Shown piece by piece: positions 2,856 through 35,547 of a stretch of 64,000 nt of DNA. The first letter of the stretch is position 1; the number at the start of each line of letters is the position of its first letter. The notes under the pieces are model-generated. The model searched no databases, was not told the DNA's origin, and saw only the letters and a program-made list of their open reading frames with translations. The position numbers were made by a program, and so were the translations under genes. Source of the stretch: a virus (lineage: Duplodnaviria; Heunggongvirae; Uroviricota; Caudoviricetes); the IMG/VR virus record IMGVR_UViG_3300046507_000639, positions 1-64,000 of that record, one strand, 5' to 3'.

Positions 2856-3334
2856 TGCGCTTTCTCCTCGTATTCTACCTTCGAGCAGAACTTGCCCTTG
2901 TAGGACTCGTAGACGTGGGCGAGGAACTCGTCACCCTTGGCTTCGTCGGCTTTCTTCCAGAACCAGTCACGGACCTTACCGAGACCGAGGCCCGCGAAGC
3001 CCAGCAGCGCGATCGCTACCGCGAAGGCCGCGATGAAGCCGAAGACGATGCCGAAGCCGACTGCTCCCGACAGTCCCGCGAAGTACATCACGATGAACGG
3101 GAGTGACCAGGCGACCAGGTTGATGCCGAGGCGGAGGGCCGGCCACACCAGGACCGCGCGCCAGTAGGCACAGAAGTCGGTGGGCGGGAAGCGACGGTCA
3201 CGGTAGGTCTTCTCGGCGTCGTTGAAGTTCTTCAGGTCTGGCCAGTACCGTGAACCGCGACTCGTTGAGTCCAGGATCAGGCTGTAGTACACGAGCCAGC
3301 GGTAGTGCCAAGAGTCTCTCTTGACTTTAAACAT
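2852..3334 (-). CDS. hypothetical membrane protein
   Basis: 160 aa with two or more TM segments (LPFIVMYFAGLSGAVGFGIVFGFIAAFAVAIALLGFAGLGL). Confidence 0.6.
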   Translation of the reverse strand: MFKVKRDSWHYRWLVYYSLILDSTSRGSRYWPDLKNFNDAEKTYRDRRFPPTDFCAYWRAVLVWPALRLGINLVAWSLPFIVMYFAGLSGAVGFGIVFGFIAAFAVAIALLGFAGLGLGKVRDWFWKKADEAKGDEFLAHVYESYKGKFCSKVEYEEKAQ

Positions 3335-4055
3335 TCGTCACCTTTCCGTAGATTAGCTCCCGGCGATCGCCGAAGGACATTGACTTGAAGTCGACGTTGA
3401 GTTTCTCGACTCTATGGCGTACTATACCATCTTCTCGAAGAATGTCAACCCTTTTAATGAAGTTTCCCGGACGAATCTCGGGAGAACCGATCATCTCGTA
3501 CTTTTCTCGAGTCGAGACGCCGTGCAGCGCCTTGGCACCGAACTCGTGGTGCGCGTGGTCCTGGATCAGGTTGCGCTCGGCGTCCTTGTAGCGCCACACG
3601 AGCATGTTCGTCGCCTCGTCCTCGTCGGGCATCTCGCAGACGCGGGCGTCGAACGACACCTCGGGGATGAAGCCGAACCGCTCGTAGAAGTTCGAGACGA
3701 ACCTGGCCGTGAAGTAGGACGACACGACCGAGCAGAGCTTCATCACCTTGCCGTCGAACGGGAGCTGGGACACGTCGTTCTTCATTGGGTGAAAGAACAG
3801 GGAGACCTCGTCGCTCTGATGGAAGCCGAGGGCGAAGTGAAACTCCTCGACCGTATCTATCGTGGAGTTGACGAAAACCTGCTCGAAGCCCGAGTCGCGC
3901 GGCTTCACCAGCTGGGCGCGGCCGACGAGTCCCCTCGTAAACTTCGAGAACGAGCGCCCGTCGAGCCTCATGTAGACGGGTCTGGACCCGTCCACCTTCG
4001 ACACGAACGCGTCCTCGTAACCCTTCATCCGGTCACCGAACTCGTCTCTCTTCAT
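3327..4055 (-). CDS. Thg1-like protein (tRNA-His guanylyltransferase family / TLP)
   Basis: MKGYE..VYMRLDGRSFSKFTRGL resembles the Thg1 N-terminal palm motif (I/VVRIDGRxFxKF). Start is taken at internal Met (MKRDEF), giving an ATGA overlap with the upstream stop. Confidence 0.65.
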   Translation of the reverse strand: MKRDEFGDRMKGYEDAFVSKVDGSRPVYMRLDGRSFSKFTRGLVGRAQLVKPRDSGFEQVFVNSTIDTVEEFHFALGFHQSDEVSLFFHPMKNDVSQLPFDGKVMKLCSVVSSYFTARFVSNFYERFGFIPEVSFDARVCEMPDEDEATNMLVWRYKDAERNLIQDHAHHEFGAKALHGVSTREKYEMIGSPEIRPGNFIKRVDILREDGIVRHRVEKLNVDFKSMSFGDRRELIYGKVTNV

Positions 4056-4987
4056 TTCTTGTCTACCTCGATGAACGGTACGGCCGAGCCAGGCACCATC
4101 GTGGTCGGCAGGTTGCCGCTCCACTTCTCGGCCTTCGTGAGCTCGATGATGTTCGGGTTGTCCCGGAGGGCGTCACCCTTGGCACGGAGCGCCGAGGCTT
4201 CTGCCTCACCGATCGCCTTGATCGCGGTGGCCTGCGCGTCGCCTGCTACCTGGACCGCCTTGGCCTTCGCGGTGGCCTCTGCCAGCTGCGCGTCGGCGGC
4301 CGCCTGAGCGTTGATCACAGTGATCTTGGCCTGGACTTCCTGCTGCTGCCTCTGCTGCTCCAGCTTCTGGACCTCGACCTGAGCGGTCATGCGGGCCTCG
4401 ACTGACTTCTCGTAGGCGTCGCTGAAGTCGATGTTCTCGACCTGCACGCTGTCGATCTGCACGGGGCCGTCCATGCCGGCCTCGACTTCCTTCTGGACGT
4501 CGGCGTTGAACTGCGCGCGGTTCTGGATGACCGACACCGCGGTGTACTTGCCGAAGACAGTCTTGACGTCCTGCGGAGCGTGGCGGGCGATCAGTCGGCC
4601 CTCGAGGTTGTCGAGGTTCCCGTACTCAGAGTAGAGCTTGAGCGCGTCAGATGCCGGCACGTGCCAAGACACAGTCACGCGCATCGCGGCGGGCTGCTGG
4701 TCCTGTGAGTAGGCCTGCATCTCGGCGCGCTCTTCAGCACTGCACTGGGTGCCGGCGACGCAGGTCCAGTAGGTCACCTGCTGGGTGACCGGGACCTTCA
4801 CGACGCTCTCGAAGAAAGGTATCTTGAAGTGAAGCCCGGGCTCTGCAGTGGAGACGGCCAGACCATTGTGCAGGATGACGCCTCGCTCGCCCTGGTCGAT
4901 CGTGTAGAACGACCCGAACGAGAGCAACGCTATAGCAGCTGCGCCGGCGCAAAGCGCCACGAACCTCGGGTTGATTGTCTTGCTCAC
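4052..4987 (-). CDS. SPFH/band-7 (prohibitin/HflC-like) membrane protein
   Basis: N-terminal TM, then the SPFH core (GERGVILHNG..HFKIPFFE), then a long coiled-coil tail (Q/A/E-rich). Confidence 0.8.
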   Translation of the reverse strand: MSKTINPRFVALCAGAAAIALLSFGSFYTIDQGERGVILHNGLAVSTAEPGLHFKIPFFESVVKVPVTQQVTYWTCVAGTQCSAEERAEMQAYSQDQQPAAMRVTVSWHVPASDALKLYSEYGNLDNLEGRLIARHAPQDVKTVFGKYTAVSVIQNRAQFNADVQKEVEAGMDGPVQIDSVQVENIDFSDAYEKSVEARMTAQVEVQKLEQQRQQQEVQAKITVINAQAAADAQLAEATAKAKAVQVAGDAQATAIKAIGEAEASALRAKGDALRDNPNIIELTKAEKWSGNLPTTMVPGSAVPFIEVDKK

Positions 4988-5631
4988 TTAATGTCCTCTC
5001 TGTGAATGAAGAAGGTGTCCATCTTCGACGGCGCCAGCTCTCGGTAGCCCATCGGGTTCAGTAAGTCTCGTATCGAGCCGGAAGCCCTCTCCACGCCGAT
5101 GATCGGGTGGAACTCCTTGATGGTCTCGATAGCGCCAAGGAGCGCAAGGTACTCGTAGCCCTCGAGGTCGAGCCAGATGAGGTCGACCGGGACCCGCAGC
5201 TTGAACGCCTCGGAGTCGATGGTGGTCATCGGGACGTCGCCGTTCGGTGTGTCCACCACCTGGTGCATGCCGACGTTGTTCATCGTGAGCCGGTTCACTC
5301 CCACGAACTTGTGGGTGTCTCCCAGTGCAGAATTGGAGTACCACACGTTCGGCAGGCCCTCGCAGTTCATCTCGAGGAAGCTGAAGTTGATGGCGTCGGG
5401 CTCGAACGTGAGCACCTGGTCGTACATGCTCGACAAGAGAGCGGGGTACATGCCGCAGCACCCACCGGCCTGGATGACGCCCCGCTTCTTCTCGAAGGTC
5501 GAGATGAGGGGGCCGTGGCTCACTATCCAGTCGTCTACAGGTCCGTCCCAGGCTCCGTCGTCGGACTTAGGCCAGTACCATTTGACGAAGGGTGCGAGCC
5601 CCTCGTGGGTGCGTACGATCACGTCACTCAT
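4984..5631 (-). CDS. FkbM-family SAM-dependent methyltransferase
   Basis: VIQAGGCCGMY..FEPDAINFSFLEMN..DLIWLDLEGYEYLALLG matches FkbM-type MTase motifs. Confidence 0.55.
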   Translation of the reverse strand: MSDVIVRTHEGLAPFVKWYWPKSDDGAWDGPVDDWIVSHGPLISTFEKKRGVIQAGGCCGMYPALLSSMYDQVLTFEPDAINFSFLEMNCEGLPNVWYSNSALGDTHKFVGVNRLTMNNVGMHQVVDTPNGDVPMTTIDSEAFKLRVPVDLIWLDLEGYEYLALLGAIETIKEFHPIIGVERASGSIRDLLNPMGYRELAPSKMDTFFIHREDIK

Positions 5632-5863
5632 ATTTTATGTACTCCGTTTCTTTCTCAAAGTGTGCCCTGTTGGCTTCTCGCTCGCGGGCGATGCTCTTGA
5701 CGTAGGCACGAGCGTATTCGTCGTTGGTGTGGCTGTAGACCTTGAACCAGAAGTCGCGGCCCATGATCGTCTTCTTCTCTTCGGCGACGTAGCCCCTCAC
5801 TCGGTCTCGGACGACGGAGAAGGGGTTCTGGATGACGGCCGGTCTGATGCGGAACTCAGGCAA
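5624..5863 (-). CDS. hypothetical protein
   Basis: 79 aa ORF in the operon context. Confidence 0.5.
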   Translation of the reverse strand: MPEFRIRPAVIQNPFSVVRDRVRGYVAEEKKTIMGRDFWFKVYSHTNDEYARAYVKSIAREREANRAHFEKETEYIKYE

Positions 5864-7258: not shown

Positions 7259-7362
7259 GCAAGGGAAGTGGAGGAGAGCAGTGGGGACGATCCACATCCT
7301 CTTGCGAGGACTGACGGTTTAGCAAACCGCACCTGTCACCCGACAGGTTTACTCTCCAAATT

Positions 7363-7437
7363 TGGCTGAGGGACCAGGGTTCGAACCTGGGCTTCACGGG
7401 TCAGAGCCGAGCGTACTGCCGGTTATACGATCCCTCA
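7363..7437 (-). tRNA. tRNA-Gln(CUG)-like, CCA encoded
   Basis: Acceptor TGAGGGA/TCCCTCA. T-arm CCAGG-TTCGAAC-CCTGG. Anticodon loop CTCTGAC. One mismatch in the anticodon stem. Confidence 0.5.
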
Positions 7438-7441
7438 AAAC

Positions 7442-7516
7442 TGGTACTCCTACTCAGAATCGAACTGAGTCATGCCGGTGTGTGATACCGGTGCCTTCCC
7501 ACCTGGCGCTAGGAGC
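7442..7516 (-). tRNA. tRNA-Val(CAC), CCA encoded
   Basis: Acceptor GCTCCTA/TAGGAGT. Anticodon arm CCGGT-ATCACAC-ACCGG. T-loop TTCGATT. Confidence 0.6.
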
Positions 7517-7517
7517 A

Positions 7518-7592
7518 TGGTACGTCTGCGTGGAATCGAACCACGTCTTGTCGCCGTGTCATGGCGATGCCTTCCCACCTGGCTCCAGACGC
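7518..7592 (-). tRNA. tRNA-Val(GAC), CCA encoded
   Basis: Acceptor GCGTCTG/CAGACGT. Anticodon arm TCGCC-ATGACAC-GGCGA. T-loop TTCGATT. Confidence 0.6.
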
Positions 7593-7603
7593 ACATTAAA
7601 ATT

Positions 7604-7676
7604 TGGTCGGGGTAAGAGGAATCGAACCTCTCCACCACGGCTCCGGACCGCAGTAAAGCACCAGCTAGTCTACCCC
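7604..7676 (-). ncRNA. tRNA-like gene with atypical anticodon arm (possible Pro-CGG, C33)
   Basis: Perfect acceptor CGGGGTA/TACCCCG and T-arm AGAGG-TTCGATT-CCTCT. Best anticodon helix has two G-U pairs and loop TCCGGAG. Confidence 0.35.
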
Positions 7677-7684
7677 GTCGTAGT

Positions 7685-8127: not shown

Positions 8128-8203
8128 TGGTACTGGGCGCCTGGATCGAACAGGCTCCTCGCGGTTCACAGCCGCGCTTGCACACCAGCTACACTAGCCC
8201 AGC
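8128..8203 (-). tRNA. tRNA-His(GUG) lacking G-1 (U-1/A73), CCA encoded
   Basis: Acceptor GCTGGGC/GCCCAGT. Anticodon arm CGCGG-CTGTGAA-CCGCG. T-arm GCCTG-TTCGATC-CAGGC. Discriminator is A; the nucleotide 5' of G1 is U. Confidence 0.6.
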
Positions 8204-9057: not shown

Positions 9058-9137
9058 TGGAGGTCACGGCGGGACTCGAACCCGCATTTTCATCCATTAC
9101 CTAACTCGAGCTTCGCAAGCTCGGCGGTTACGTGACC
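9058..9137 (-). ncRNA. tRNA-like RNA B (same architecture as A)
   Basis: Acceptor GGTCACG/CGTGACC. T-arm GCGGG-TTCGAGT-CCCGC. U-CCA 3' end. Hairpin CGAGC-TTGCGAA-GCTCG at positions 15-31. Confidence 0.4.
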
Positions 9138-9142
9138 GTATG

Positions 9143-9171
9143 TGTCTATTTATTACAGATCGACGCGATTG
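9143..9171 (-). promoter_or_regulatory. promoter for tRNA-like RNAs B and A
   Basis: TTGACA-N17-TAAATA ends about 5 nt upstream of the RNA B 5' end. Confidence 0.45.
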
Positions 9172-9710: not shown

Positions 9711-9884
9711 TCACAGGAGCCCCTTCGGCATGTAAGGAACGAAGATGACTGTCTCTTCTCTGTCTTCGGTGTATCGGACGTCGACGGCGGTGTGCCATCT
9801 GCACTCTTCGCCGTGCTTCATGGCTCCGGACTCGTCTCTTTGGGAACCGCAGTGTGAACAGGACTCACGGGGAACTTTCTTCAC
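9711..9884 (-). CDS. small Cys/His-containing protein (57 aa, GTG start)
   Basis: SD AAGGAG sits 5 nt upstream of GTG, with a GTGA overlap to the YqeY gene stop. CSHCG..C.WH pattern. Confidence 0.4.
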   Translation of the reverse strand: MKKVPRESCSHCGSQRDESGAMKHGEECRWHTAVDVRYTEDREETVIFVPYMPKGLL

Positions 9885-10303
9885 AGGAACTCCTTAGCGA
9901 TCTTCGACGCGAGGGTGCCGTCGTACAGGCCGGCGAAGTTGTCCTTGAGGTGCTTCATCATGAGGCCCAGGTTCGACTCGTCGAGCTCGGTGAAGATCTC
10001 ACGGATCTTCTCCTCGGTCAGCTGAGTCGGCAGGTACTTCTCGATGATCCCCTTCTCGAACTCGACCATCTTGATCGCGTTCTCTGGTAGGTTCTCGATC
10101 GCGAGCAGCTCAGCGTTCTTCTTGAGGTACGACTTGAGCACAGTCACGACGTGCTGCTCGGTCAGTTCGACTCTGCCTTCTGCCGTGATGGCAGCAGACT
10201 CGATCGTGCCGATCAGGGCCGACAGGAACGCCGCGGTCGACGACTCACGAGCCTTGCGGGCTGCCAGGAAGTCGTCCTTTATCGTCTGCAGTAGATCGCT
10301 CAT
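9881..10303 (-). CDS. GatB/YqeY-domain protein
   Basis: 140 aa. FLAARKARE..LSALIGTIESA..YLKKNAELLAIENLPENAIKMVEFEKGIIEKYLPTQLTEEKIREI fits the YqeY family pattern. Confidence 0.65.
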   Translation of the reverse strand: MSDLLQTIKDDFLAARKARESSTAAFLSALIGTIESAAITAEGRVELTEQHVVTVLKSYLKKNAELLAIENLPENAIKMVEFEKGIIEKYLPTQLTEEKIREIFTELDESNLGLMMKHLKDNFAGLYDGTLASKIAKEFL

Positions 10304-11262: not shown

Positions 11263-11349
11263 TGGTGCGCGCAGAGGGACTCGAACCCTCGGTGGGCTTA
11301 CGCCATCCGGTTAAGAGCCGGAACCTATCGCCGCTAAGGTGATACGCGC
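11263..11349 (-). tRNA. type-II-like tRNA (long variable arm), anticodon loop CTCTTAA, identity uncertain
   Basis: Acceptor GCGCGTA/TGCGCGC. T-arm GAGGG-TTCGAGT-CCCTC. Anticodon arm TCCGG-CTCTTAA-CCGGA. Discriminator A, then CCA. Confidence 0.45.
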
Positions 11350-11647: not shown

Positions 11648-11731
11648 TGGTGGGCATGGTGGGACTCGAACCCACACGCGCTAGGCACCAGGCTCTCGAC
11701 CTGGCAAGGCTACCAATTTCATCACACGCCC
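11648..11731 (-). tRNA. tRNA-Leu(GAG)-like, type II, CCA encoded (C33 in anticodon loop)
   Basis: Acceptor GGGCGTG/CATGCCC. T-arm GTGGG-TTCGAGT-CCCAC. Anticodon arm CCAGG-TCGAGAG-CCTGG. Confidence 0.45.
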
Positions 11732-11743
11732 AATTATCGCCAA

Positions 11744-11811
11744 CGTCACGACGGGATTCGAACCCGCGTTTCCCCCTGAACGGGGGCGTTCTCTCCGCTA
11801 AACTACGGGAC
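11744..11811 (-). ncRNA. degenerate tRNA-Glu(UUC)-like element, no encoded CCA
   Basis: T-arm CGGG-TTCGAAT-CCCG. Acceptor has 2 mismatches (GTCCCGT/TCGTGAC). Anticodon-like hairpin CCCC-CGTTCAG-GGGG. Short D region. Confidence 0.3.
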
Positions 11812-11904
11812 TCAGGAGTCGGTGTTCCCGGCAAGGACCGCTTTCCCCTGTGGCTCAACCTACGGGATCGGCTTGCCGACCTACCCGCCTGGGTCTACTA
11901 AACT

Positions 11905-12154: not shown

Positions 12155-12345
12155 AGCAGGTTCCTCAGGTTGAGCTGGCGCACGAAGTCGCCAGCCTCGA
12201 TCACCGTGAGACCGTGGCCGAGCGCCCAGCCGTAGGCCAGGGACTCCCAGTAGTGGTCACTTTTTGGGTCCACCTCTTCTGCCTGCGTGAAGACCTCTCT
12301 GATCCAGACGAGGATCAGCTCATGCAGCGACTGCCCGTTCACGGC
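12151..12345 (-). CDS. hypothetical protein (64 aa, GTG start)
   Basis: SD AAGGAGGGA sits 4 nt upstream of GTG. The Ser/Thr/Arg-rich upstream part of ORF 12151..12528 is rejected. Confidence 0.45.
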   Translation of the reverse strand, partial: AVNGQSLHELILVWIREVFTQAEEVDPKSDHYWESLAYGWALGHGLTVIEAGDFVRQLNLRNLL

Positions 12346-12823
12346 GTCCCTCCTTCTTGCCCCCGTAGGTGCGGAAGTGGTCGGCCGCGAAGCTCGACGC
12401 AAGTGCGTCCGGCTTGGCCACCGCGTCGATGCCGCAGACGCCTCGGACGTAACCCATGGCCTCGGCGTACGCGACGTTCGAGCCGTGTTTCTTGTCCTTG
12501 TTGATGTCGACGTGCAGCTCGATCTCACGGTCGCCGATGACTTCCGCGAGCTTCAGGTACATACCGACCGAGCGGTAGACCTCATTCATCATGCGCATGC
12601 GCGGCGCGTCCTTCTTCTGGTCGTAGTCGCGCTCAGTGTCGATGTCGCCGAAGACCCGGCAGCCGTTCTTGCCGTTGATGTGCACGACGCAGACGGTCGT
12701 GTAGCGGGCGTACCAGACGCCCTCCTTCTTGAAGCGGTAGGAGTCACAGCCGATGTAGACCTTCGTCTCCGGCGTCTGCCGGGCGATGAAGTCGCGGACC
12801 TCGTCGATGTCAAATTTCTTCAT
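12320..12823 (-). CDS. hypothetical protein (possibly RNase H-like fold)
   Basis: 167 aa ORF with coding GC3. VYIGCDSYRFKKEGVWYARYTTVCVVH. Confidence 0.55.
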   Translation of the reverse strand: MKKFDIDEVRDFIARQTPETKVYIGCDSYRFKKEGVWYARYTTVCVVHINGKNGCRVFGDIDTERDYDQKKDAPRMRMMNEVYRSVGMYLKLAEVIGDREIELHVDINKDKKHGSNVAYAEAMGYVRGVCGIDAVAKPDALASSFAADHFRTYGGKKEGRRERAVAA

Positions 12824-13053: not shown

Positions 13054-13229
13054 TCTCGATAGTCTATATCATTTTCTTGAGCGAAGTCAACCAGCATTTC
13101 ACACTGGGACTTGCTGTACACCTCGAAGGGCGACTGCTCCTCGAAGACTGCCTCCCAGAGGTAGTGCGTGACGACGATCTTGCCGTCGAAGACTTCCCAC
13201 CCGCCGTCAAAGAACTGTACGATGCTCAT
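13035..13229 (-). CDS. hypothetical protein (start at MSIVQFF)
   Basis: ATGA coupling with 13226..13657. Confidence 0.45.
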   Translation of the reverse strand: MSIVQFFDGGWEVFDGKIVVTHYLWEAVFEEQSPFEVYSKSQCEMLVDFAQENDIDYREWMEAA

Positions 13230-13657
13230 TTGTGTAGCTCCAGGTGCTTGATGACCCGGTGTGCCGGCGAGTCCTTGTAACATAACACGTAGGCGCAGGT
13301 CTCGACGGGGATGTAGTGCGTGTAGCTGCCGTCGCGCAGCGGGTAGGTCGGGTCGAGGATGACGCCTGAGACCCCAGAGTCTTTCCTGACGGCGCGTTCG
13401 GCCTCGATCTGCGCGATGAGCTCCTTGATGTCGTCCATGGAGCCTCCGTCGAGCGTCAGCACGGTACCGAAGTCCTGAGAAGTCCCGAAGGCCCAGTAAC
13501 TGTACAGATCTTTCGCGTCACGCTCGGCGTGCTTCGCAGCCGCATTGGCGGCATGGGAACCTTGCGCGATCGCCTTGCCCGGGTTCATAGACTTCAAGTC
13601 GGTGCGCATTATGATGAACAGGATCGGAGTCCAACCCTTCTTTGCGTCGTCAGTCAT
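13226..13657 (-). CDS. peptidyl-tRNA hydrolase, PTH2 family
   Basis: ILFIIMRTDLKSMNPGKAIAQGSHAANAAAKHA matches the PTH2 signature (VvRtDLgMgkGKiaAQcsHAa). Confidence 0.65.
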   Translation of the reverse strand: MTDDAKKGWTPILFIIMRTDLKSMNPGKAIAQGSHAANAAAKHAERDAKDLYSYWAFGTSQDFGTVLTLDGGSMDDIKELIAQIEAERAVRKDSGVSGVILDPTYPLRDGSYTHYIPVETCAYVLCYKDSPAHRVIKHLELHK

Positions 13658-14501: not shown

Positions 14502-15953
14502 TCAGATCGCGGCGCGCTCCCGGACCTCCTTGAAGGTCGTCGTGCGCAGGACCTTGCCTGCCTCCCACACCCGCTCGAGGTAGTTGTGGGCGCCGTGGTG
14601 GCCGACGGCGTTCGCCAGCTTGAGGTCGTCCTCCCGCATCGAGTGGTACGTCCCGTCGAAGTAGACGACTGCCTGGCGGCCGGCCTTGGACGCCTTAGAT
14701 GGGTCGGTCTTCGGCTTCTTCTGGACGTCCACCCAGTTCACGTGGCCCGCGACCTCGCCGGGACGGTAGTGGACCGCGTTGGTCTTCATCGCCCAGGACT
14801 GGTCGTCGCGCATCACGCCCTGGAGCAGCTTGCCGCCCATGCCGAACACGATGTTCTCACAGCTGAAGTCGGCGTCGCCGACCGCGATGAGGATCTCATT
14901 GATGGAGTCGTAGTTGACGCCGTCGCCCTGGATCACGCGCACCTTGGCGTTGAGCACCCTGTAGCCCTTCGAGTTGATCGTGCCGCCGAACTTCTCCCAG
15001 AGGAGATTGAGCACGCGCGGGACGATCTGGGTGGGCTCTCCGCTGTCGGGGCGCACCACGATGAACCCGTTGCGGTCCGTGATCGCAGCGTGGTTGTCGC
15101 GGCCGACGATGTTCGTCACGAAGTTGTCGAGGTCGTAGCTGTCGGCGACCAGGGATATGATCGGGAAGCCCATGCCCGTGAAGGTCTCGATCGTGGCGCC
15201 GATGAACTTCGACTCGCCCTCCGGGCCGTTGATGGTGGTGACGGAGTGCTCCGTGGCCGGCACCGACACGATGACCGGGCCGTCTCGATCGAGGTTGTGG
15301 TCGTAGTAGAGGACCGCCGCGTCGATCGCCTCGAACGTGTCGGAGCCGATGAAGTTGACCGCGTGCGCCAGACCTCCGAGCGCGGCCGACTCACCGCTCG
15401 AGACTCCTCGGGCGCCGAAGTCGTTGAGCATCGTGGGGAGCAGCACGTCGGGGTCGAGGTCAGAGTTGAGCTCGATGAAGACCTTGAGGTTCTTCTTGAT
15501 CTCACGCGAGAGCGTCGCGACCGACGACGGGTACCAGACGGCGCGGAGCAGCGATGTCTCGATCACGCTGATGAGGCCGGGGTACTTCTTGTCGTGCGAG
15601 GTGACCTGGACCACCGGGACGCCGTGCTTCACGGGTGTGCCCTCGGGCAGCGCCTGGATCGTGATCGGCAGGAAGCCGTTGTAGTGCGTGACGACGTGCT
15701 CCCACATCTCGCGTGGGAACGGGATCATGGCGGACTTGGCCTTGCGCTCCTCGCGGTCGATGTCCTCGACGGTGATCGGCTTCGAGAGGTACTCGCGGAC
15801 GTACGCCTGGAGACCGAAGAAGACGATCTCCTCGGCCCAGCCGTGGCGGGCCTCGATGTACGAGGTGAGGCCGTCGACCGACCGAGAGATGACGAACGGG
15901 TGCGAGAACTTGTAGCAGTCGCTCGCCGAGATAACGTTTCTGTTGAGCAGCAT
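14502..15953 (-). CDS. nadV: nicotinamide phosphoribosyltransferase (NAMPT/NadV)
   Basis: 483 aa. NAPRTase-family architecture end to end. The + strand ORF 14415..15977 is its mirror artifact. Confidence 0.8.
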   Translation of the reverse strand: MLLNRNVISASDCYKFSHPFVISRSVDGLTSYIEARHGWAEEIVFFGLQAYVREYLSKPITVEDIDREERKAKSAMIPFPREMWEHVVTHYNGFLPITIQALPEGTPVKHGVPVVQVTSHDKKYPGLISVIETSLLRAVWYPSSVATLSREIKKNLKVFIELNSDLDPDVLLPTMLNDFGARGVSSGESAALGGLAHAVNFIGSDTFEAIDAAVLYYDHNLDRDGPVIVSVPATEHSVTTINGPEGESKFIGATIETFTGMGFPIISLVADSYDLDNFVTNIVGRDNHAAITDRNGFIVVRPDSGEPTQIVPRVLNLLWEKFGGTINSKGYRVLNAKVRVIQGDGVNYDSINEILIAVGDADFSCENIVFGMGGKLLQGVMRDDQSWAMKTNAVHYRPGEVAGHVNWVDVQKKPKTDPSKASKAGRQAVVYFDGTYHSMREDDLKLANAVGHHGAHNYLERVWEAGKVLRTTTFKEVRERAAI

Positions 15954-16307: not shown

Positions 16308-17375
16308 TCAGAAGCCGAGCAGGTCGGCGATGACGTCCCAGTGATCCTCAAAGAAATAGTGCTCCATGTTCTGGACCAGGCTGATCGGGTACCAGTGAGC
16401 CTTCGCGGCGTCGTCCGAGCCGACGACCTTCGGCAGCTCACCGACGTTGCTCAGCTCGAAGAGGTGGGCGTGGGTGATGATGTGGGAGCGGTTGGAGCGG
16501 TAGGGGTCGTCGTAGACCTCTCGCTTCGTGATGGACCCGCGCAGCACCTTCTCGGGCACTTTCAGCCGCGTCTCCTCGCGGAGCTCACGGATGACGCCGT
16601 CGGTGACCTTCTCGCGTCGGTTCAAGAAACCTCCGGGTAGCGCCAGGAGACCTCGACCGTACTCGCGCCCGCGCTCGATGAGGAGGACGTGGCCGGCCTG
16701 GACGACGCAGGCGTCGACCGTGACGTGAGGACCCTTGCCGTAGACCGCTTCGTACTTCTGCTCGTAGGCCCAGTCTGCGAAGAGCCGGTCGAACTCGGAA
16801 CGGTCGTGCGTGATCATGTCCTCCATGAGCAGCCGTCCCGCGAGGACCATCTCGTGGTCGTAGCCGACTTCACCGGCGAACACCTTCTTGCGGATGTTCG
16901 TGGAGGAGAGGATCTGCTCGTCCACCTCCTCAGGTCGCACCGCGATCGAGTTGTCCCACTGCGGGAAGCTGTTGAGGTAGTAGCTCGTGCCGTCCTTGTA
17001 CATCCCGGCGAGGGCGACCTTGTGGTTGAAGTCCTTGAACGTGTTGTTCGTGAAGACGGCCACGTTGGAGTGCTGGGCGATGGCCTCGCTCACGGCGTGC
17101 TGCACGCCCGCGATCCAGCGAGTGTCGTTGTACCGGTAGTCGTTGCAGGAAGTGACGATGACCCGGCCGCGGTCCACTTCGGGGAGCGATGCCAGGATGA
17201 TGTCGCGCCTCTCGGCGAAGGTGAAGGGGACCCGTGTGTTCCTGGGGCGGTTGGCCGAGCCGACGACTACTATGACGTAGTCTGAGACGGTCAGGGCTTT
17301 CTCGATGACCCTGAGGTGTCCGAGGTGAAACGGGGAAAAACGGCCGATGAACACGGCGTAGTCATAGCTGATCAC
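16308..17375 (-). CDS. natV: bifunctional NMN adenylyltransferase / Nudix ADP-ribose pyrophosphatase (NadM-Nudix, NatV-like)
   Basis: N-terminal HxGH motif (FSPFHLGH). C-terminal Nudix box GGFLNRREKVTDGVIRELREETRL. GTG start with SD AGAGGAG. Confidence 0.8.
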   Translation of the reverse strand: MISYDYAVFIGRFSPFHLGHLRVIEKALTVSDYVIVVVGSANRPRNTRVPFTFAERRDIILASLPEVDRGRVIVTSCNDYRYNDTRWIAGVQHAVSEAIAQHSNVAVFTNNTFKDFNHKVALAGMYKDGTSYYLNSFPQWDNSIAVRPEEVDEQILSSTNIRKKVFAGEVGYDHEMVLAGRLLMEDMITHDRSEFDRLFADWAYEQKYEAVYGKGPHVTVDACVVQAGHVLLIERGREYGRGLLALPGGFLNRREKVTDGVIRELREETRLKVPEKVLRGSITKREVYDDPYRSNRSHIITHAHLFELSNVGELPKVVGSDDAAKAHWYPISLVQNMEHYFFEDHWDVIADLLGF

Positions 17376-20800: not shown

Positions 20801-21216
20801 CAGAGGAACAGCTCCGGGAGGGCTTCCTTGACCAGCTTCTTGTCGATGGTCTTGAACGGCAGCTTGCCGGCGATCATGCCCGTCAGCAGCTTCGCGTCGT
20901 CCTTGTCGACGTACTCGAGGATCTGGATGAAGGCCGCCTCGCGCTTGTGCTGCGGCCAGCCCGGGAGGGCGCCGGCGACGAACGTGCGCTCGATCTTCCT
21001 GATCTCCTGGTAGATGTTGTTGTGCTCGTCGAACTCAGACGGCTTGTACGGAGGCGGCGTGTCAGGCAGGTCGAACTTGTACTCGCCGTAGGTCAGCTTG
21101 AGGAGGGTGTCGAACGTTACGGTCCGGTTCGCGCGGAGGTAGTCGATCTTCTCCTTGCGGGTCTTCAGGTCGTCGACGGTCTTGAAGTAGGAGTATGCGT
21201 GTAGAGTAGCCATCAA
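20800..21216 (-). CDS. hypothetical protein
   Basis: 138 aa ORF. Confidence 0.55.
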   Translation of the reverse strand: MMATLHAYSYFKTVDDLKTRKEKIDYLRANRTVTFDTLLKLTYGEYKFDLPDTPPPYKPSEFDEHNNIYQEIRKIERTFVAGALPGWPQHKREAAFIQILEYVDKDDAKLLTGMIAGKLPFKTIDKKLVKEALPELFL

Positions 21217-22085
21217 AAATCGCTCAATTGTTCGACCAGGCTCGAGAGCCGGTACTTGGTGAAGTAGGTAAGGAGTTTAAGTCGGGTCTTGCCGGCCTGG
21301 GCCTCGTAGGCCTCCATGATGCCGGCCTTTATCGTCTCGGGCGTGCGCGAGAGGTCGATCAGCAGCTCGTTGCGGAAGTAGCCGACCTCGGTGCAGGTGC
21401 CGGCTTTAACGGCGTCCTTGAGTCCTGCCATGCGCTTAGCGGTGAGGGTCATGTTGCGCCCGCCGGGCTTGATGAACGTCTCGTCGGCCGACATCGCGTT
21501 GGGGATGCCGTCGCCCTTGTCGCCCTTGATCACGTGCTCCAGGAGGTACTCCTCGGGGTCGTTGTTCGTGATGAAGCCGACCTTCATTCCGACCGGGCTG
21601 TACTGGCGGACGTTGCTGTACTTCTGGAGCTGGATGAAGTCCTTGTCTCCCGACAGGATGAGGACCTTCTCGCGGCCGTTGCCGAGGGGAACGCCGTACG
21701 CGTGGGCGAGGGTGCCTATGACGTCGTCGGCCTCGGCGCGGTCCACCTCGATGACGCGGTAGGGGAAGTACTCCTTCAGCTCGGCCTTCAGGTCGCGCAT
21801 GCACTCGAAGATGAAGGGCCAGTCGAGGTCGGACTCGTCGCGGCCCTTCTTTCGGTTGGCCTTGTAGTAGGGGAAGTAGTCCTTGCGCCAGCTGGCGTAG
21901 GTGTCACACGCGATCACCACGTCTCGACCGTAGTCGGAGCGGAACTTTGACACGTTCTTCCGGATCGTGTTCAGTATCATCTTCCTGAAGAGGTCCTTCG
22001 AGAGCTGTCCCTCGTCGTCCTTCAGGTTGGCGTACTGCACCATTATGTTGGCCAGGCAGACCTGGGAGAAGTCAAAAATAATCAC
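21213..22085 (-). CDS. rnh: T4-type RNase H / 5'-3' flap endonuclease
   Basis: FEN-family acidic clusters (AEADDVIGT, GDKDFIQL). Confidence 0.75.
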   Translation of the reverse strand: MIIFDFSQVCLANIMVQYANLKDDEGQLSKDLFRKMILNTIRKNVSKFRSDYGRDVVIACDTYASWRKDYFPYYKANRKKGRDESDLDWPFIFECMRDLKAELKEYFPYRVIEVDRAEADDVIGTLAHAYGVPLGNGREKVLILSGDKDFIQLQKYSNVRQYSPVGMKVGFITNNDPEEYLLEHVIKGDKGDGIPNAMSADETFIKPGGRNMTLTAKRMAGLKDAVKAGTCTEVGYFRNELLIDLSRTPETIKAGIMEAYEAQAGKTRLKLLTYFTKYRLSSLVEQLSDF

Positions 22086-30699: not shown

Positions 30700-30738
30700 A
30701 AAAGAAAAGCCCGGTCAACCGCCGGGCTTGTTTCTTCT
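30700..30738. terminator. bidirectional rho-independent terminator
   Basis: GCCCGG-TCAACC-GCCGGGC hairpin flanked by A-run and T-run. Confidence 0.6.
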
Positions 30739-30873
30739 CGTGAACTCGAGGAACCCTAACCGGTTCCTCTTTTTGTATCCGTCGGCGGTCGACTTGCTCA
30801 CCTTCAGCTTGTCGTCGGGGCCCTGAGAGCCTATGCCCGAGACGTTGGCGGTCACGTTTACTGGGACTGTCAT
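30715..30873 (-). CDS. small hypothetical protein (52 aa)
   Basis: ATGA overlap with the upstream stop. The 3' end lies inside the terminator hairpin. Confidence 0.3.
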   Translation of the reverse strand: MTVPVNVTANVSGIGSQGPDDKLKVSKSTADGYKKRNRLGFLEFTRRNKPGG

Positions 30874-31262
30874 ACTCGCTTCAGCACCTCCACCACGTCG
30901 TAGTTAACGGGCACGTCGGCCGAGGAGATCGTCAGGTTCTTGACGCTGACGTTGTACACCTTCGGCGGCATGTAGTTCAGGAACAGCAGGAACGCCTTGA
31001 GCTCGGGGTAGTAGCCGTCCATCTTCATGAACAGCATCCGCGTAGCGGGCACGGAGCCGAACAGGTTGTAGATCACTATTATGTGGTTCAGTATCAGCCG
31101 TTCCCGCAGGACTCCCGTCTCGCGGTACTTCTTGAACAGCTTCTTCAGGTACTTGAACCTCTTGAGGTCATCGAAGAACTCGATGTCGTCAAAGCAGTGC
31201 GGGTTGTCGTAGTGGCGCGCTGCGTACAGGATAAAGTTTGACTCATCGAGCTTCTCATACAT
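30870..31262 (-). CDS. hypothetical protein
   Basis: 130 aa ORF. Confidence 0.6.
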   Translation of the reverse strand: MYEKLDESNFILYAARHYDNPHCFDDIEFFDDLKRFKYLKKLFKKYRETGVLRERLILNHIIVIYNLFGSVPATRMLFMKMDGYYPELKAFLLFLNYMPPKVYNVSVKNLTISSADVPVNYDVVEVLKRV

Positions 31263-32100: not shown

Positions 32101-32158
32101 CGGTGTTCTCCCGTTATTGGTGTTTTCTTGCTTTATTTATAAAACGGGGATCCAGCCT

Positions 32159-32839
32159 TCACTTGACTCGCTTGACGGCCTTCTTCAAGACCTCGCGGGC
32201 GTGACGACGCTTCAGGGACTGCACTGTCTTGATGGACTCCTCGGCGGTGTAGACCGCGCGGACCTTCTCGGCTATCTCGTCGGCGTAACCAGCGAGTGAG
32301 TCAGGCAGGCCCCAGAGGACCCGGTCGGCGTCCTCCGATATGCACGCCTCGCGCACCATAGAGGCAGAGACGCCGTCGATGGAGTCAGAGTCTGCGCGTC
32401 GTGCGCCCGCGTCCACCACGGACCAGGACTCAAAGCCGAACTCCGACTCGTTGTACTTCTCGAACATGTCAGAGAACTCTTCGACGCGGTCTCCGCCGAC
32501 GACCATCACGACCCTCGGGTAGTCACGCGCGAGCGACTTGAGGGACTCGACGACCGTGCGGGAGTCCGACGGGACGATGACGTCACCGAATGCCTCGGTC
32601 GCGTAGAAGACCTTGTCCTCGTACGAGAGCGGGTTGCGCTTGCTGTTGGAAGAGTGGGAGAGGTGGATGACGTGGTCGCCCTCGATGGAGAGCACCGTCT
32701 CGACCAGCTTCTCGTGACCCTTGGTGGGAGGGTTCATCCTCGCCCAAGAGAAGACCACGGTCTCAGCGAGACGGGGCTTCAAGTCGATCGGCGTAGTCTT
32801 GTTTCCGGTCTTGGTTCGTTTTTGCGTAGTTCTGGTCAA
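32159..32839 (-). CDS. HxGH-motif nucleotidyltransferase (cytidylyl/adenylyltransferase superfamily)
   Basis: VVFSWARMNPPTKGHEKL resembles the (T/H)xGH signature. Confidence 0.45.
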   Translation of the reverse strand: MTRTTQKRTKTGNKTTPIDLKPRLAETVVFSWARMNPPTKGHEKLVETVLSIEGDHVIHLSHSSNSKRNPLSYEDKVFYATEAFGDVIVPSDSRTVVESLKSLARDYPRVVMVVGGDRVEEFSDMFEKYNESEFGFESWSVVDAGARRADSDSIDGVSASMVREACISEDADRVLWGLPDSLAGYADEIAEKVRAVYTAEESIKTVQSLKRRHAREVLKKAVKRVK

Positions 32840-33020
32840 TGCTGTGGACTTTCTGTTGTAGCCCAGCCACTGTAGACTCGAGCGTGCTTATCTGAGCGTC
32901 AAGCGTGCTGATGTCCCTCAGGAGATCGGTGTTGTTGGCCTCAGTGACTCCCGATAGCTCTAGGAGCAGCGCCATCGAGATTAACGACACACCGCAAAGA
33001 GCCCACAGTAGCTTGATCAT
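32763..33020 (-). CDS. hypothetical membrane/coiled-coil protein
   Basis: 85 aa with an N-terminal TM segment. Confidence 0.4.
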   Translation of the reverse strand: MIKLLWALCGVSLISMALLLELSGVTEANNTDLLRDISTLDAQISTLESTVAGLQQKVHSIDQNYAKTNQDRKQDYADRLEAPSR

Positions 33021-33037
33021 ATTCGCTCCGTTTTTTA

Positions 33038-34027
33038 TTATTTATTCAGTGACCAGCCTCGACGGTAGAGCGACCCGAAGTTGGCTGCGGAGAACTTGGC
33101 CCGGTTCACGAGCTTGCACGAGAAATCGCCGTCCCAGTAGACCAGCCCCTCGTGAGAGGTGTCGACTTCTGTCCCGTCTTCCTTCATGAAAGTGGTCTTC
33201 TCGTACCACGACTGCTCCGCCTCTAGGACCTGGCGGAGGAGCATGTTCTTCATCGATGAGACCCTTGAGTACGCTATCGAGACCTCGTCGTCGGCCGGGA
33301 AGGGGGTGCCCCTGCGGACGCACCCGTTCATGCTCTTCGTCGTGTGGGCTGTCTCGTACGAGGAAGGCGGCCGAATGCGGGTCATCATCGGCGACGCCGC
33401 CGGCAGCGGCCTCACGAGCTCGTTGCGCATCACGAAGACGTCGTGCGGCCAGTGGACCGAGAACTTGTCGCACCGCTTCAAGTCCAGAAACTCGTCGACC
33501 GCGTAGTAGCTGTGCGGGACTATCCCGACTCGACACCTTGAGACTTCTCTCGCGGCGTCACTCGATCCCCGGTAGTGGTACCGGATGACGTTCGGGTGGA
33601 ACGTGTAGTAGGACCTCGTCCGGCCTTTCTGGTGAGACCCGTCGTACAGAGTCGTCCACGTCACCTCTTCCTGCGAGCTGAACAGTAGCTCGCACTGGAC
33701 CGCAGTGCCGGTGCGAAGTCTGACGCCGACTGCCAGGACGGCCTTCATCTTCACGCGCAGGTCTTCGCGCGGGCACCGCAGGTCGATGTCCTCCTCGCAC
33801 CGGTAGACGATCGGCTTCTTGTTGAAGATTCCCTTGCTCGCGACGAACCGGTGCCCGTCCACGTCTGTGCCGAAGAAGACTGCCGGCGCGCCGTCGTACT
33901 TCATCGAGAAGCGAGGGGCGCAGTCGACTCCCGAGGTGAGGTCTCGGAGGACCTGCTCGGCCTTCAAGAAACCTACCTCCCCCTCTAGGAGGATCAGGTC
34001 TTCTAGGTGAGGTAGGTGGTCAGGCAC
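33038..34027 (-). CDS. ATP-dependent polynucleotide ligase (KYDG motif; DNA-ligase-like, RNA ligase not excluded)
   Basis: Motif I SMKYDGAPAVFF. Motif IV EGLVYWDG. Motif V KLVNRAKF. 329 aa. Confidence 0.6.
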   Translation of the reverse strand: MPDHLPHLEDLILLEGEVGFLKAEQVLRDLTSGVDCAPRFSMKYDGAPAVFFGTDVDGHRFVASKGIFNKKPIVYRCEEDIDLRCPREDLRVKMKAVLAVGVRLRTGTAVQCELLFSSQEEVTWTTLYDGSHQKGRTRSYYTFHPNVIRYHYRGSSDAAREVSRCRVGIVPHSYYAVDEFLDLKRCDKFSVHWPHDVFVMRNELVRPLPAASPMMTRIRPPSSYETAHTTKSMNGCVRRGTPFPADDEVSIAYSRVSSMKNMLLRQVLEAEQSWYEKTTFMKEDGTEVDTSHEGLVYWDGDFSCKLVNRAKFSAANFGSLYRRGWSLNK

Positions 34028-34316
34028 CGGCGGACTCCCTCGCTACCTCGTCGAACTTCGGACCGCCGACCAGGTAGCCCGGCGTCGCGGACATTAGGTT
34101 CGGATGAGTAATGTCGATGCAGACGTGAGGGAAGACGAGCGAGCCGTCTTCAACCGGTATCTCCATCATGTCAGTCTCTTGAGTGAGTCCTAACACAATC
34201 GCCAGTTCCCAGCACCTCGATGCCGAGACAGACGTTATGTCGTCCTCGTAGAGGCCGCAGAACAGGAAGCGGTTTCCGTCCTCGTCGACGAACACTGGGT
34301 ATCTGATCTTAGACAT
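34020..34316 (-). CDS. hypothetical protein
   Basis: 98 aa ORF. Confidence 0.5.
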   Translation of the reverse strand: MSKIRYPVFVDEDGNRFLFCGLYEDDITSVSASRCWELAIVLGLTQETDMMEIPVEDGSLVFPHVCIDITHPNLMSATPGYLVGGPKFDEVARESAGA

Positions 34317-35547
34317 GTTTCTTCCTGTGTATGTTGGCCGCGTCAGCCTTAGCCCTGTGCAGCACGTCCTTGCGGCGGTTTATCGGCATGGCCTCTATCT
34401 CGGCCGGGTCTTCGACCACGTCGGACAGCTTCACCTTCGAGACGGCGCGTATGACTGTCTTGGCAGTCTCGGCGTTCGGGTAGTCCCTGTCGGAGTAGAA
34501 GCTGGATCGACCGCGAGAGTCACACATGGACACGGTCGGCAGTATTTCCGCCAGACCCGGGCACTTTGGCAGCTGCAGGTCGTCGACCATGTCAGCTATC
34601 GTCGTGCCCTTCAGCAGGTGGAAGTTGTGCACGTGGGTGTGGTACTTCGCCACCACCGCGCTGGCGTGACGCCACTCCGACGGCATCTTCAACCGGTCGG
34701 CCATGTCTCGAGCTATGAAGTAGCCGCGCGCCTCGTGGCCGTAGTGGTGCGGCAGCACGTCGGCCGGAGTGGTGCCCTTGCCCAGGTCGTGGACCAGCGC
34801 GCAGTACCTCGTCAGCGGGTGATGTGAGGCCTTCGTGGCCTCGTCCAGAACCATCATGGTGTGAGTGAACGAGTCGCCCTCGGGGTGGTGCTCGTAGGAG
34901 CCCGCAGGGACTCCGACCAGTCGGTGCACCTCGGGGAAGACGACTTCCAGGGCGCCGACCATCTGCAGGAACACGAAGAACCGTGAGGGCCTCTTCTCGC
35001 CCAGCGCCTTGACCATCTCGGCCGAGACTCGCTCGGGAGTCAAGTGTGCCAGCTCGCCGGCCGCGACCATCTCACGGCACAGCTTCACGGTTGTCTTGTG
35101 GACAACGAAGTCAGTCCACCTCGACAGGAAGCGTGCCAGCCGCAGCACGCGCACCGGGTCTTCCTTGAAGCCCTCGTCGTCGACGTGGCGCAGGACGCCG
35201 TCGCGCAGGTCTCGCTCGCCGTTGAACGGGTCGTACAGGACGCCGTCGGCCATCGCCATGGCGTTCACGGTCAGGTCTCGTCGGCGCAGGTCGTCCTCCA
35301 GAGACACACCCTCGGTCTCGACCGTGAAGCCGTGGTAGCCGTTCCCGCTCTTCTTCTCGGTTCGGGCCAGCGCGTGCTCCTCGCCGGTCACGGGGTGCAA
35401 GAAGACCGGGAAGTCAGCCCCGACTTTCTTGTAGCCCATGTCCAGCATCTCCTGCTCGGACGAGCCGACGACGACCCAGTCGACGTCTTTGGCGTAAGCG
35501 TTCATGAAGGTGTCCCGCACGCAGCCGCCGACTTTATAGAACTTCAT
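34309..35547 (-). CDS. cca: CCA-adding tRNA nucleotidyltransferase (class II, with HD domain)
   Basis: Pol-beta head MKFYKVGGCVRD...GADFPVF. HD motif HSFTH...HDLGK. Confidence 0.8.
   Translation of the reverse strand: MKFYKVGGCVRDTFMNAYAKDVDWVVVGSSEQEMLDMGYKKVGADFPVFLHPVTGEEHALARTEKKSGNGYHGFTVETEGVSLEDDLRRRDLTVNAMAMADGVLYDPFNGERDLRDGVLRHVDDEGFKEDPVRVLRLARFLSRWTDFVVHKTTVKLCREMVAAGELAHLTPERVSAEMVKALGEKRPSRFFVFLQMVGALEVVFPEVHRLVGVPAGSYEHHPEGDSFTHTMMVLDEATKASHHPLTRYCALVHDLGKGTTPADVLPHHYGHEARGYFIARDMADRLKMPSEWRHASAVVAKYHTHVHNFHLLKGTTIADMVDDLQLPKCPGLAEILPTVSMCDSRGRSSFYSDRDYPNAETAKTVIRAVSKVKLSDVVEDPAEIEAMPINRRKDVLHRAKADAANIHRKKHV

Follow-up and report, generated by a model that had tools for sequence, protein, structure and literature searches.

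In phage T4, Pnk and Rnl1 heal and seal tRNA-Lys that has been cut by PrrC. Jumbo phages and Atu_ph07 carry arrays of tRNA genes together with a CCA-adding enzyme, Thg1, a peptidyl-tRNA hydrolase of the PTH2 type and RlaP, and these genes have been read as serving tRNA-end restoration and ribosome rescue (PMC7824862, PMC6102473). The CCA enzyme, Thg1 and peptidyl-tRNA hydrolases of Atu_ph07 were described in 2018 as 'tRNA processing proteins' (PMC6102473), and Iyer et al. (2021) placed tRNAs, RNA ligases, RlaP, the CCA enzyme, Thg1 and PTH2 in a phage RNA-repair complement (PMC7824862). Among immune nucleases, one is known to cut the 3' tails of tRNAs (PMC12851939). Here, a related gene set is described in a 64,000-nucleotide stretch of DNA (positions 1 to 64,000 of the IMG/VR virus record IMGVR_UViG_3300046507_000639), hereafter called the window; coordinates are positions in the window, and (−) marks the minus strand. 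The window represents the early/accessory part of the genome of an uncultured phage in the T4 superfamily that is a distant relative of the Sinorhizobium phages phiM12 and phiN3. On balance, it seems rather likely to encode a dispersed, lineage-inherited set of tRNA upkeep proteins which, together with ten phage tRNA or tRNA-like genes, would keep the tRNA pool usable.

Comparison with described phages

No nucleotide-level relatives were found when the regions at 3–14 kb and 30–38 kb were compared with 50,697 phage records using megablast, and an exact 40-mer likewise had no match in IMG/VR. The closest cultured relatives by protein sequence (~55% identity) are phiM12 and phiN3 (genus Emdodecavirus, T4 superfamily), which likewise share no nucleotide-level similarity with the window. 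The same phage is present on metagenome contigs from JGI and Logan, the longest of which measures 135.8 kb, and therefore does not count among the jumbo phages. A 126-kb contig, L004, represents a collinear relative with 42–86% protein identity over window positions 23.7–44.5 kb. The phage probably infects an alphaproteobacterium that lacks a G at position -1 (G-1) in its tRNA-His.

The annotated set of phiM12 comprises Thg1, a CCA enzyme, two PTH2-type genes, YqeY, Rnl1, Rnl2, an nrdC.11-like transferase, a macro-domain protein, a metallophosphoesterase, NAMPT and NMNAT-Nudix. A first-pass annotation of the window had named five genes (Thg1-like, CCA enzyme, PTH2, YqeY and a ligase), all of which are present as open reading frames (ORFs), and phiM12 and phiN3 hold orthologues of four of them. 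The similarities to these phages include Thg1 (56% identity), the CCA enzyme (54%), the PTH2-like protein ('aminoacyl-tRNA hydrolase'; 43–45%), YqeY ('tRNA amidotransferase'; 39–41%), RlaP/nrdC.11 (46%; gp269 of phiM12), the metallophosphoesterase (49%; gp283 of phiM12), NAMPT and NMNAT-Nudix. The combination of Thg1 and PTH2, thought at first to be undescribed in phages, had thus already been found in phiM12 and phiN3, in Atu_ph07 (PMC6102473) and in the survey of Iyer et al. (PMC7824862).

The window and phiM12 also have a T4-type replication core in common, with the order thg1, gp41, uvsX and gp43, whereas the interval between thg1 and gp41 is occupied by ~36 kb of accessory genes in the window and by 7 kb in phiM12. 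Rnl1, Rnl2 and a second, canonical PTH2 are present in phiM12 and absent from the window, whereas a DUF6267 gene is present in the window and has no match in phiM12. Jumbo phages normally add Rnl1, Rnl2 or RtcB and a polynucleotide kinase/phosphatase, none of which was seen in the window. The resemblance to T4 lies in the phage repair of damaged host tRNA and in the RlaP (nrdC.11) homologue common to both phages. However, the parallel with Pnk and Rnl1 drawn in the first-pass annotation, by way of a different set of enzymes, is incomplete: the window contains neither Pnk kinase nor Rnl1 nor Rnl2, and the predicted targets of its enzymes are the 3'-CCA end and the 5' acceptor strand rather than the anticodon loop.

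Predicted functions of the tRNA upkeep genes

The gene at 34309..35547(−) encodes a predicted class II CCA-adding/repair enzyme of the Escherichia coli Cca type with an HD phosphohydrolase region, as assigned using Pfam, NCBIfam and PHROG. The matches to PolyA_pol (E 2.5e-17, 63.9 bits) and PolyA_pol_RNAbd (E 4e-9, 36.5 bits) are both above the cut-off. The NCBIfam model NF008137, 'multifunctional CCA addition/repair protein', matched with an E value of 1.4e-134 and a score of 448.9, slightly short of the value of 451 at which CCA-adding enzymes are told apart from poly(A) polymerases and A-adding enzymes; PcnB models scored 47–74 bits, and PHROG 2244 matched with an E value of 7.8e-122. The HD domain that had been proposed for this enzyme is borderline (E 2.2e-4, 21.9 bits against a cut-off of 22), with the HD dyad present in the segment 'LVHDLGK'. 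Apart from this region, the Thg1, class II CCA enzyme, PTH2 and YqeY assignments of the first-pass annotation all pass the Pfam cut-offs.

Two further genes were missed in the first-pass annotation. One, at 50806..51795(−) and outside the range considered there, encodes an RlaP (T4 nrdC.11-like) Pol-beta nucleotidyltransferase (PF10127, E 1.1e-10, 42.1 bits against a cut-off of 23; PHROG 388, E 8.7e-80). RlaP enzymes add one or two nucleoside monophosphates to damaged RNA 3' ends, prefer damaged RNAs and are required to restore the charging of heavily damaged tRNA (PMC12776372). The other, at 37570..38223(−), encodes a metallophosphoesterase that is a candidate 3'-end healing enzyme (Metallophos, E 6.3e-7; PHROG 1649) and lies at the corresponding place in L004. 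Between the metallophosphoesterase and CCA genes, the window encodes a 447-aa protein containing Calx-beta and glycoside hydrolase family 16 domains (36270–37613(−)), which is absent from the collinear L004.

The gene at 13226..13657(−) encodes a divergent PTH2-like peptidyl-tRNA hydrolase (PF01981, 36.3 bits against a cut-off of 23, profile positions 3–85 of 115). In place of the C-terminal D-A-G-x-T motif it reads DSGVS, followed by an insertion, and its PDB matches, to Pth2 and Bit1, are weak. It is the orthologue of phiM12 gp291 and not of the canonical PTH2 gp226 (45% identity to the phiN3 protein). Its clade was found by tblastn in 32 of the 50,697 phage records, and the hosts named among the matches listed (30, one of them without a host; two records lie outside this listing) are all alphaproteobacterial.

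A YqeY/GatB-C-terminal-like protein is encoded inside the tRNA cluster at 9881..10303(−) (PF09424, E 6.7e-15, 55.9 bits against a cut-off of 27, profile positions 2–143 of 143; PHROG 1460). Orthologues occur in phiM12, phiN3, phiM7, phiM19 and T5-like phages, and a homologue with 34% identity also lies among tRNA genes in contig L009, the sole distant locus found when YqeY was used as a viral-locus probe. The protein is probably tRNA binding. To our knowledge, no enzymatic function has been established for this family of small helical domains, and the earlier count of five tRNA-related enzymes was overstated in this respect.

Taken together, these predictions outline how the tRNA pool may be maintained. 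The Cca-type enzyme would rebuild lost 3'-CCA ends and has an HD region that may remove 2',3'-cyclic or 3'-phosphate ends. The TLP-type Thg1 homologue described below would refill missing 5' acceptor-stem nucleotides, using the 3' strand as the template; it would add no G-1 to tRNA-His, since neither the phage tRNA-His nor a histidyl-tRNA synthetase (HisRS) of the type that does without G-1 would need it. RlaP would extend broken 3' ends by one or two nucleotides, the metallophosphoesterase would heal 3' ends, and the divergent PTH2 would free tRNA from dropped-off peptidyl-tRNA, with YqeY as a probable tRNA-binding accessory. A ligase-fold enzyme of the DUF6267 family may work with the adjacent NMNAT-like transferase. 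The likely benefit is a tRNA pool that stays usable during infection, including against host tRNA-cutting nucleases. The idea of a tRNA repair toolkit put forward in the first-pass annotation is reasonable for the Thg1-like, CCA and PTH2-like proteins, and it is strengthened by RlaP and the metallophosphoesterase.

The DUF6267 gene and its NMNAT-like partner

The gene at 33038..34027(−) encodes a short variant of the DUF6267 family and a candidate ligase-fold (covalent nucleotidyltransferase) enzyme. It matched only DUF6267 in Pfam and PHROG 455 ('unknown function'), with no Pfam match to RNA_ligase, DNA_ligase_A_M or RNA_lig_T4_1. The KYDG-motif ligase recognized in the first-pass annotation is borne out as far as the motifs are concerned and belongs to no named ligase family: motifs I, III, IV and V are present in order (K42-x-D44-G45, Q110-G111-D112, E292-G293, K304 and R308) and are invariant or nearly so in an alignment of 27 sequences. 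Unlike DNA ligases, which have a C-terminal OB domain with motif VI, the protein ends ~20 residues past motif V, and its model contains no OB domain. In contrast to the RNA ligases Rnl5 (Naegleria NgrRnl, 5cot) and Rnl2 (T4, 1s68/2hvq), to which there is no significant sequence or profile similarity, DUF6267 has a helical insert between motifs IIIa and IV, a conserved N-terminal H-x-E-D helix and an obligate NMNAT-like partner. Comparisons with known structures and ligases gave little more: hhalign placed the KxDG and QGD motifs on the KLDG and QGE motifs of phiM12 Rnl2 with a non-significant E value of 0.22 and did not align the core with that of phiM12 Rnl1; phmmer gave no significant match in PDB; a profile of the 27 sequences returned coiled-coil noise only from PDB; and a Foldseek search of PDB with the model was non-significant (best E 0.4). 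We assign DUF6267 a ligase fold with moderate confidence and do not place it in any of the named ligase families.

PHROG 455 extends over the DUF6267 protein and the product of a gene two positions away (32159..32839(−)). That gene encodes the conserved DUF6267 partner, an NMNAT/PPAT-like HxGH nucleotidyltransferase. In cyanophage S-PM2 the two form a single polypeptide, and fusions in both orders occur among metagenomic members. One DUF6267 member carries an N-terminal AAA_33/Zeta-type P-loop kinase instead, which by analogy would correspond to the kinase–ligase layout of heal-and-seal enzymes. In public annotations, the NMNAT-like gene begins at ATG 32737 and lacks a first beta strand ('TVVFSWAR') that is conserved in homologues; the true start is probably TTG 32839, which would overlap an 85-aa ORF (32763–33020) by 77 nt in another frame.

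The DUF6267 family is large (3,659 clusters at 50% identity) and occurs in T4-like cyanophages, a pelagiphage, Methylophilales phages and the window phage; a literature search for DUF6267 found no paper. T4-like cyanophages account for 110 of the 121 phage records with a DUF6267 gene, and in them the pair is widespread and annotated just as hypothetical.

In the window, DUF6267 appears from sequence signals to be co-transcribed with the CCA enzyme. A promoter-like site lies upstream of the CCA gene (35752..35780(−), TTTACA-17-TATAGT, 10 of 12 consensus matches), and a terminator-like hairpin with an 8-pair, 6-GC stem followed by a T run (30707..30729(−)) would end a unit extending from the CCA gene to a DUF7207 gene; both are consensus matches only. 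The CCA and DUF6267 genes are separated by a conserved 98-aa ORF (34020..34316(−)) that overlaps both neighbours, has no match in Pfam or PHROG and is 46% identical to a 97-aa ORF at the equivalent site in L004. That contig also keeps the order CCA enzyme, small ORF, DUF6267, small ORF and NMNAT-like gene, at 42–63% identity. The DUF7207 protein (30870..31262(−); PF23837, E 8.3e-38) is a recurrent neighbour of DUF6267: in distant phage contigs, DUF7207 (L004, L013 and L014) and DUF6321 (L012 and L014) lie a few kilobases at most from DUF6267 and the transferase that accompanies it, suggesting a conserved block larger than the two-gene pair.

DUF6267 is the only candidate for a sealing enzyme in the window. 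A fuller proposal, which is tentative and which we hold to be rather doubtful, is that DUF6267 and its NMNAT-like partner form an unrecognized polynucleotide ligase family. The fusions would then point to a ligase supplied locally with newly made or renewed nucleotide cofactor, e.g. NAD+ from NMN, and the apparent co-transcription with the CCA gene, where phiM12 has Rnl1 and Rnl2 instead, would reflect recruitment to tRNA repair in this lineage.

A role outside any tRNA toolkit is a possibility to be taken seriously, though still short of probable. DUF6267 and its partner would then act on DNA, e.g. by sealing nicks during replication or repair, and the adjacency to the CCA gene would be incidental; such a protein might supply the ligase that is 'missing' from T4-like cyanophages or might serve another nucleotide-transfer reaction. 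The predominance of T4-like cyanophages among the DUF6267 records fits this explanation, as does the position of the gene in S-PM2, directly after gp43, UvsX, gp41 and MazG, and cyanomyoviruses are without a recognized gp30 ligase (PMC2984593). Moreover, because the conserved partner is an NMNAT-like transferase and not a tRNA enzyme, the link of DUF6267 to tRNA consists of its adjacency to the CCA gene in this lineage only. However, Stenotrophomonas phage DLP6 carries both DUF6267 and a gp30-type DNA ligase, and DUF6267 as a mere replacement of the gp30 ligase was rejected on this ground. The fusion of one family member to a Pnk-like P-loop kinase and the retention of the CCA–DUF6267 adjacency in L004 despite 52% divergence also argue against action on DNA.

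Repair, housekeeping and the cohesion of the gene set

A second explanation is that the set serves housekeeping rather than counter-defence, i.e. that the enzymes mature and recycle phage tRNAs required for a differing codon usage, without a host tRNA nuclease being involved. PTH2 and CCA enzymes have ordinary cellular housekeeping roles, and no defence or anti-defence signature was identified beside the genes in question. In addition, 'tRNA processing' is how the authors of the Atu_ph07 study interpreted this set of genes, and they linked the tRNAs with codon usage (PMC6102473). However, since nine of the ten tRNA genes encode CCA and hosts own a CCA enzyme and Pth, plain maturation needs no phage copies, and relatives add the repair enzymes Rnl1, Rnl2 and a kinase–phosphatase pair. 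Bacterial Thg1-like proteins (TLPs), of which BtTLP of Bacillus thuringiensis is an example, are repair-type and not maturation enzymes, and damaged RNAs are the preferred substrates of RlaP, as noted above. Housekeeping therefore appears rather improbable.

Several observations weigh against tRNA upkeep as the common function of the set, among them the non-significant hhalign, PDB profile and Foldseek results for DUF6267 and the location of the DUF6267/NMNAT-like pair beside replication genes in T4-like cyanophages, which points away from a tRNA-specific role. The PTH2-like protein scores far under the equivalog cut-offs (NF003314, 27.8 against 126; TIGR00283, 22.5 against 82). No Rnl1, Rnl2 or AAA_33 kinase was found in the window by tblastn with phiM12 Rnl1 and Rnl2 and the kinases of contigs L010 and L011, and because no 5'-kinase, Rnl1 or Rnl2 is present there, a complete heal-and-seal pathway is not visible in the 64 kb covered here of a 135.8-kb source contig. 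Some 60 unrelated genes are interspersed with the five over 32 kb, and the set as a whole extends over ~50 kb; because the genes are scattered, co-function is deduced from annotation and not from operon structure. Pfam scans of ~55 window ORFs likewise revealed no kinase of the polynucleotide 5'-kinase type, and the window as a self-contained heal-and-seal pathway was rejected. Nor is the module proposed in the first-pass annotation a physical one; in phiM12, thg1 is >100 kb from the other members of the set, and the gene order is rearranged relative to the window. The gene set is a functional category and not an operon, with the exception of the CCA/DUF6267 block.

This dispersal raises the possibility that there is no functional unit, the genes being independent accessory genes in a plastic early region and the 'toolkit' an artefact of grouping by annotation. 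The intervening genes include those for NAD salvage, ThyX, PhoH, RNase H, a glycosyltransferase and a homing endonuclease, the order differs from that in phiM12, and phiM7 and phiM19 retain the CCA enzyme, PTH2 and YqeY but have no Thg1 match. Nevertheless, the same rare families (Thg1 in 149 and the PTH2 clade in 32 of the 50,697 records) recur together in several unrelated large-phage lineages, and local linkages exist: YqeY lies in tRNA clusters, the CCA gene beside DUF6267, and Thg1 near a kinase–phosphatase pair in relatives. We therefore consider the absence of any functional unit unlikely and retain the dispersed upkeep set as the preferred interpretation.

tRNA genes and the Thg1-like protein

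ARAGORN identified nine tRNA genes between 7363 and 11813, to which Rfam adds tRNA-Ser(GCU), giving 10 tRNA or tRNA-like genes; between 11813 and 11985, where the cluster had first been thought to end, no tRNA was found. Inspection of the acceptor ends revealed an encoded CCA in nine of the ten. tRNA-Ser(GCU) (7269..7358(−); Rfam match at 7272..7358) has a long variable arm and U73, was matched only through the tRNA-Sec model of Rfam, with 45.9 bits (cut-off 47), and folds into a clean cloverleaf (z -4.4). Next to it, at 7363..7677(−), lie ARAGORN-predicted tRNAs for Gln(CUG), Val(CAC), Val(GAC) and Pro(CGG), of which the first three match Rfam RF00005 with 52.7, 42.6 and 49.5 bits, respectively, and Pro(CGG) was called by ARAGORN only, its single Rfam match being to tRNA-Sec (23.8 bits, E 0.27). 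The remaining CCA-encoding genes other than tRNA-His are an aberrant tRNA-like gene with the anticodon GCG (Arg; 9058..9147(−); Rfam, 36.2 bits at 9061..9137), tRNA-Lys(CUU) (11263..11349(−); Rfam, 47.2 bits) and tRNA-Leu(GAG) (11648..11731(−); Rfam, 39.2 bits), all called by ARAGORN. The GCG gene has perfect acceptor and T arms, a D region of ~4 nt and a variable region of 18 nt (fold z -2.6). The variable arm of tRNA-Lys(CUU) is 13 nt long, which is unusual for a lysine tRNA.

The one gene without an encoded CCA is a degenerate tRNA-like sequence ('Glu-UUC'; 11743..11812(−); Rfam, 40.9 bits), which had been taken to provide the CCA enzyme with a substrate. CCA is indeed absent, but this sequence is a poor argument for such a substrate because its acceptor stem is mismatched (A1xG72 and C5xU68), its anticodon loop has 5 nt and its minimum free energy fold is not a cloverleaf (z -0.72). 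It was likewise rejected, in view of the loop and the fold, as a real substrate for 5' editing and CCA addition.

tRNA-His(GUG) (8128..8203(−)), identified by ARAGORN, Rfam and the acceptor check, encodes CCA and is of the alphaproteobacterial type lacking G-1 (delta-G-1). The A73 and the U at -1 reported in the first-pass annotation were confirmed, and together with G1:U72, C2:G71 and a 9-nt D loop they match the published delta-G-1 signature (PMC3064791). Addition of G-1 lowers the efficiency of Caulobacter crescentus HisRS 5-fold; G-1 is of no help and does mild harm to charging by a delta-G-1 HisRS (PMC3064791).

The gene at 3327..4055(−) encodes a Thg1-like protein of the TLP type, a predicted 3'-5' nucleotidyltransferase that matches PF04446 (E 1.2e-22, 80.7 bits against a cut-off of 29.2) and PHROG 4717 (E 4.6e-65); its ATG at 4055 agrees exactly with the called 242-aa gene (P0056) on public contigs. 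The window ORFs 734–1318 and 61845–63017 have no such counterpart on record, probably owing to differences in the called starts. The best solved relative is BtTLP (PDB 4kgk, E 1.3e-21), human THG1 following with an E value of 8e-6. Residues D32, D82 and E83 are invariant across 22 homologues and align with the RxDG...SDE motifs of both proteins. The phage protein shares these catalytic motifs with BtTLP, whereas it is phage-encoded and only ~30–35% identical to it. The eukaryotic-type HINNLYN motif, which serves anticodon recognition, is replaced by AERNLIQ, and the protein is nearer to TLPs than to Thg1. Bacterial TLPs prefer templated repair of 5'-truncated tRNAs, and templated addition opposite A73 would yield U, not G. 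Because the protein is of the TLP type and neither the phage tRNA-His nor, presumably, the host HisRS uses G-1, we infer that its role is templated 5'-end repair; the database label 'tRNA-His guanylyltransferase' is unlikely to describe this role. That the protein is nevertheless a true tRNA-His guanylyltransferase, supplying G-1 to a G-1-dependent host HisRS or altering host tRNA-His, agrees with the PHROG and GenBank annotations and with the tRNA-His encoded in the window, yet is very improbable given the presence of every delta-G-1 feature in the phage tRNA-His, the charging results cited above, the preference of TLPs for templated addition and the much closer relationship to bacterial TLPs.

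In contigs L010 and L011, Thg1 lies 3–5 kb from an AAA_33 P-loop kinase, which in L011 directly abuts a metallophosphoesterase; by their predicted activities, the latter two would form an end-healing pair. In the window, the start codon of the Thg1-like gene is overlapped by 4 nt (ATGA) by an SPFH/Band-7 gene (4052–4987(−)), suggesting translational coupling, and an FkbM-type methyltransferase gene lies just upstream of the latter (4984–5631) and likewise near thg1 in phiM12 and L010.

Other features of the window

The G+C content of the window is 58.6%, and ORFs with a high G+C content at the third codon position are almost all on the minus strand. Pfam scans identified T4-type replication genes for a gp41-like DnaB helicase (40511..41866), UvsX (41917..42972), a family-B DNA polymerase (from 45570..47060), the gp44 clamp loader (54941..55897) and T4 RNase H (21213..22085). 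The polymerase gene (43712–47060(−)) appears to be split into one part (45570–47060) in which the exonuclease domain is joined to the beginning of the polymerase domain and a C-terminal part (43712–44686), whereas gp43 of phiM12 is a single gene. Between the two parts lies a 179-aa ORF (45034–45573) with 40% identity to the L011 metallophosphoesterase that abuts the P-loop kinase near Thg1.

Accessory genes found by Pfam include those for NAMPT, NMNAT-Nudix, ThyX, PhoH, glutaredoxin and a SegE-type endonuclease. NAMPT (14502–15953(−)) and the bifunctional NMNAT-Nudix (16308–17375(−)) form a close NAD+ salvage pair with counterparts in phiM12 (gp295 and gp296), and the window thus contains two genes with an NMNAT fold, the NMNAT-Nudix gene and the DUF6267 partner at 32159–32839. 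An RNase H-like DUF458/YkuK-family protein (PF04308, E 9e-15) is encoded between the tRNA cluster and the PTH2-like gene (12320–12823(−)). A macro-domain protein (734..1318(−); Pfam Macro, E 2.1e-8; NCBIfam ADP-ribose-binding protein, E 3e-16, below the cut-off), which would bind or process ADP-ribose, is a possible accessory whose membership of the set is uncertain; the macro gene that phiM12 carries next to its PTH2-like gene is a different one. The window also encodes a C5 cytosine DNA methylase at 58472–59659(−) and a UDP-galactopyranose mutase at 60779–61858(−) (GLF, E 2e-48), the latter enzyme being unusual for a phage and hinting at a galactofuranose-containing modification.

Implications

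As a whole, the gene set is already described in relatives, and the window adds one more uncultured phage and changes little in this respect. Its two distinctive aspects are a puzzling 'tRNA-His guanylyltransferase' beside a tRNA-His system without G-1 and the uncharacterized pair of DUF6267 and NMNAT-like genes. Delta-G-1 hosts with phages that carry a 'tRNA-His guanylyltransferase' include Sinorhizobium, Agrobacterium, Caulobacter, Brevundimonas and probably the host of the window phage. Since G-1 is used neither by these hosts nor by the phage tRNA-His, these phages offer a natural case for the in vivo role of bacterial-type TLPs. DUF6267 is a large, unstudied family that covers genes conserved in marine T4-like cyanophages, which have been noted for lacking a recognizable ligase. 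What DUF6267 joins, and why it has an NMNAT-like partner, are questions whose answer would fill a gap in the biology of T4-like phages.

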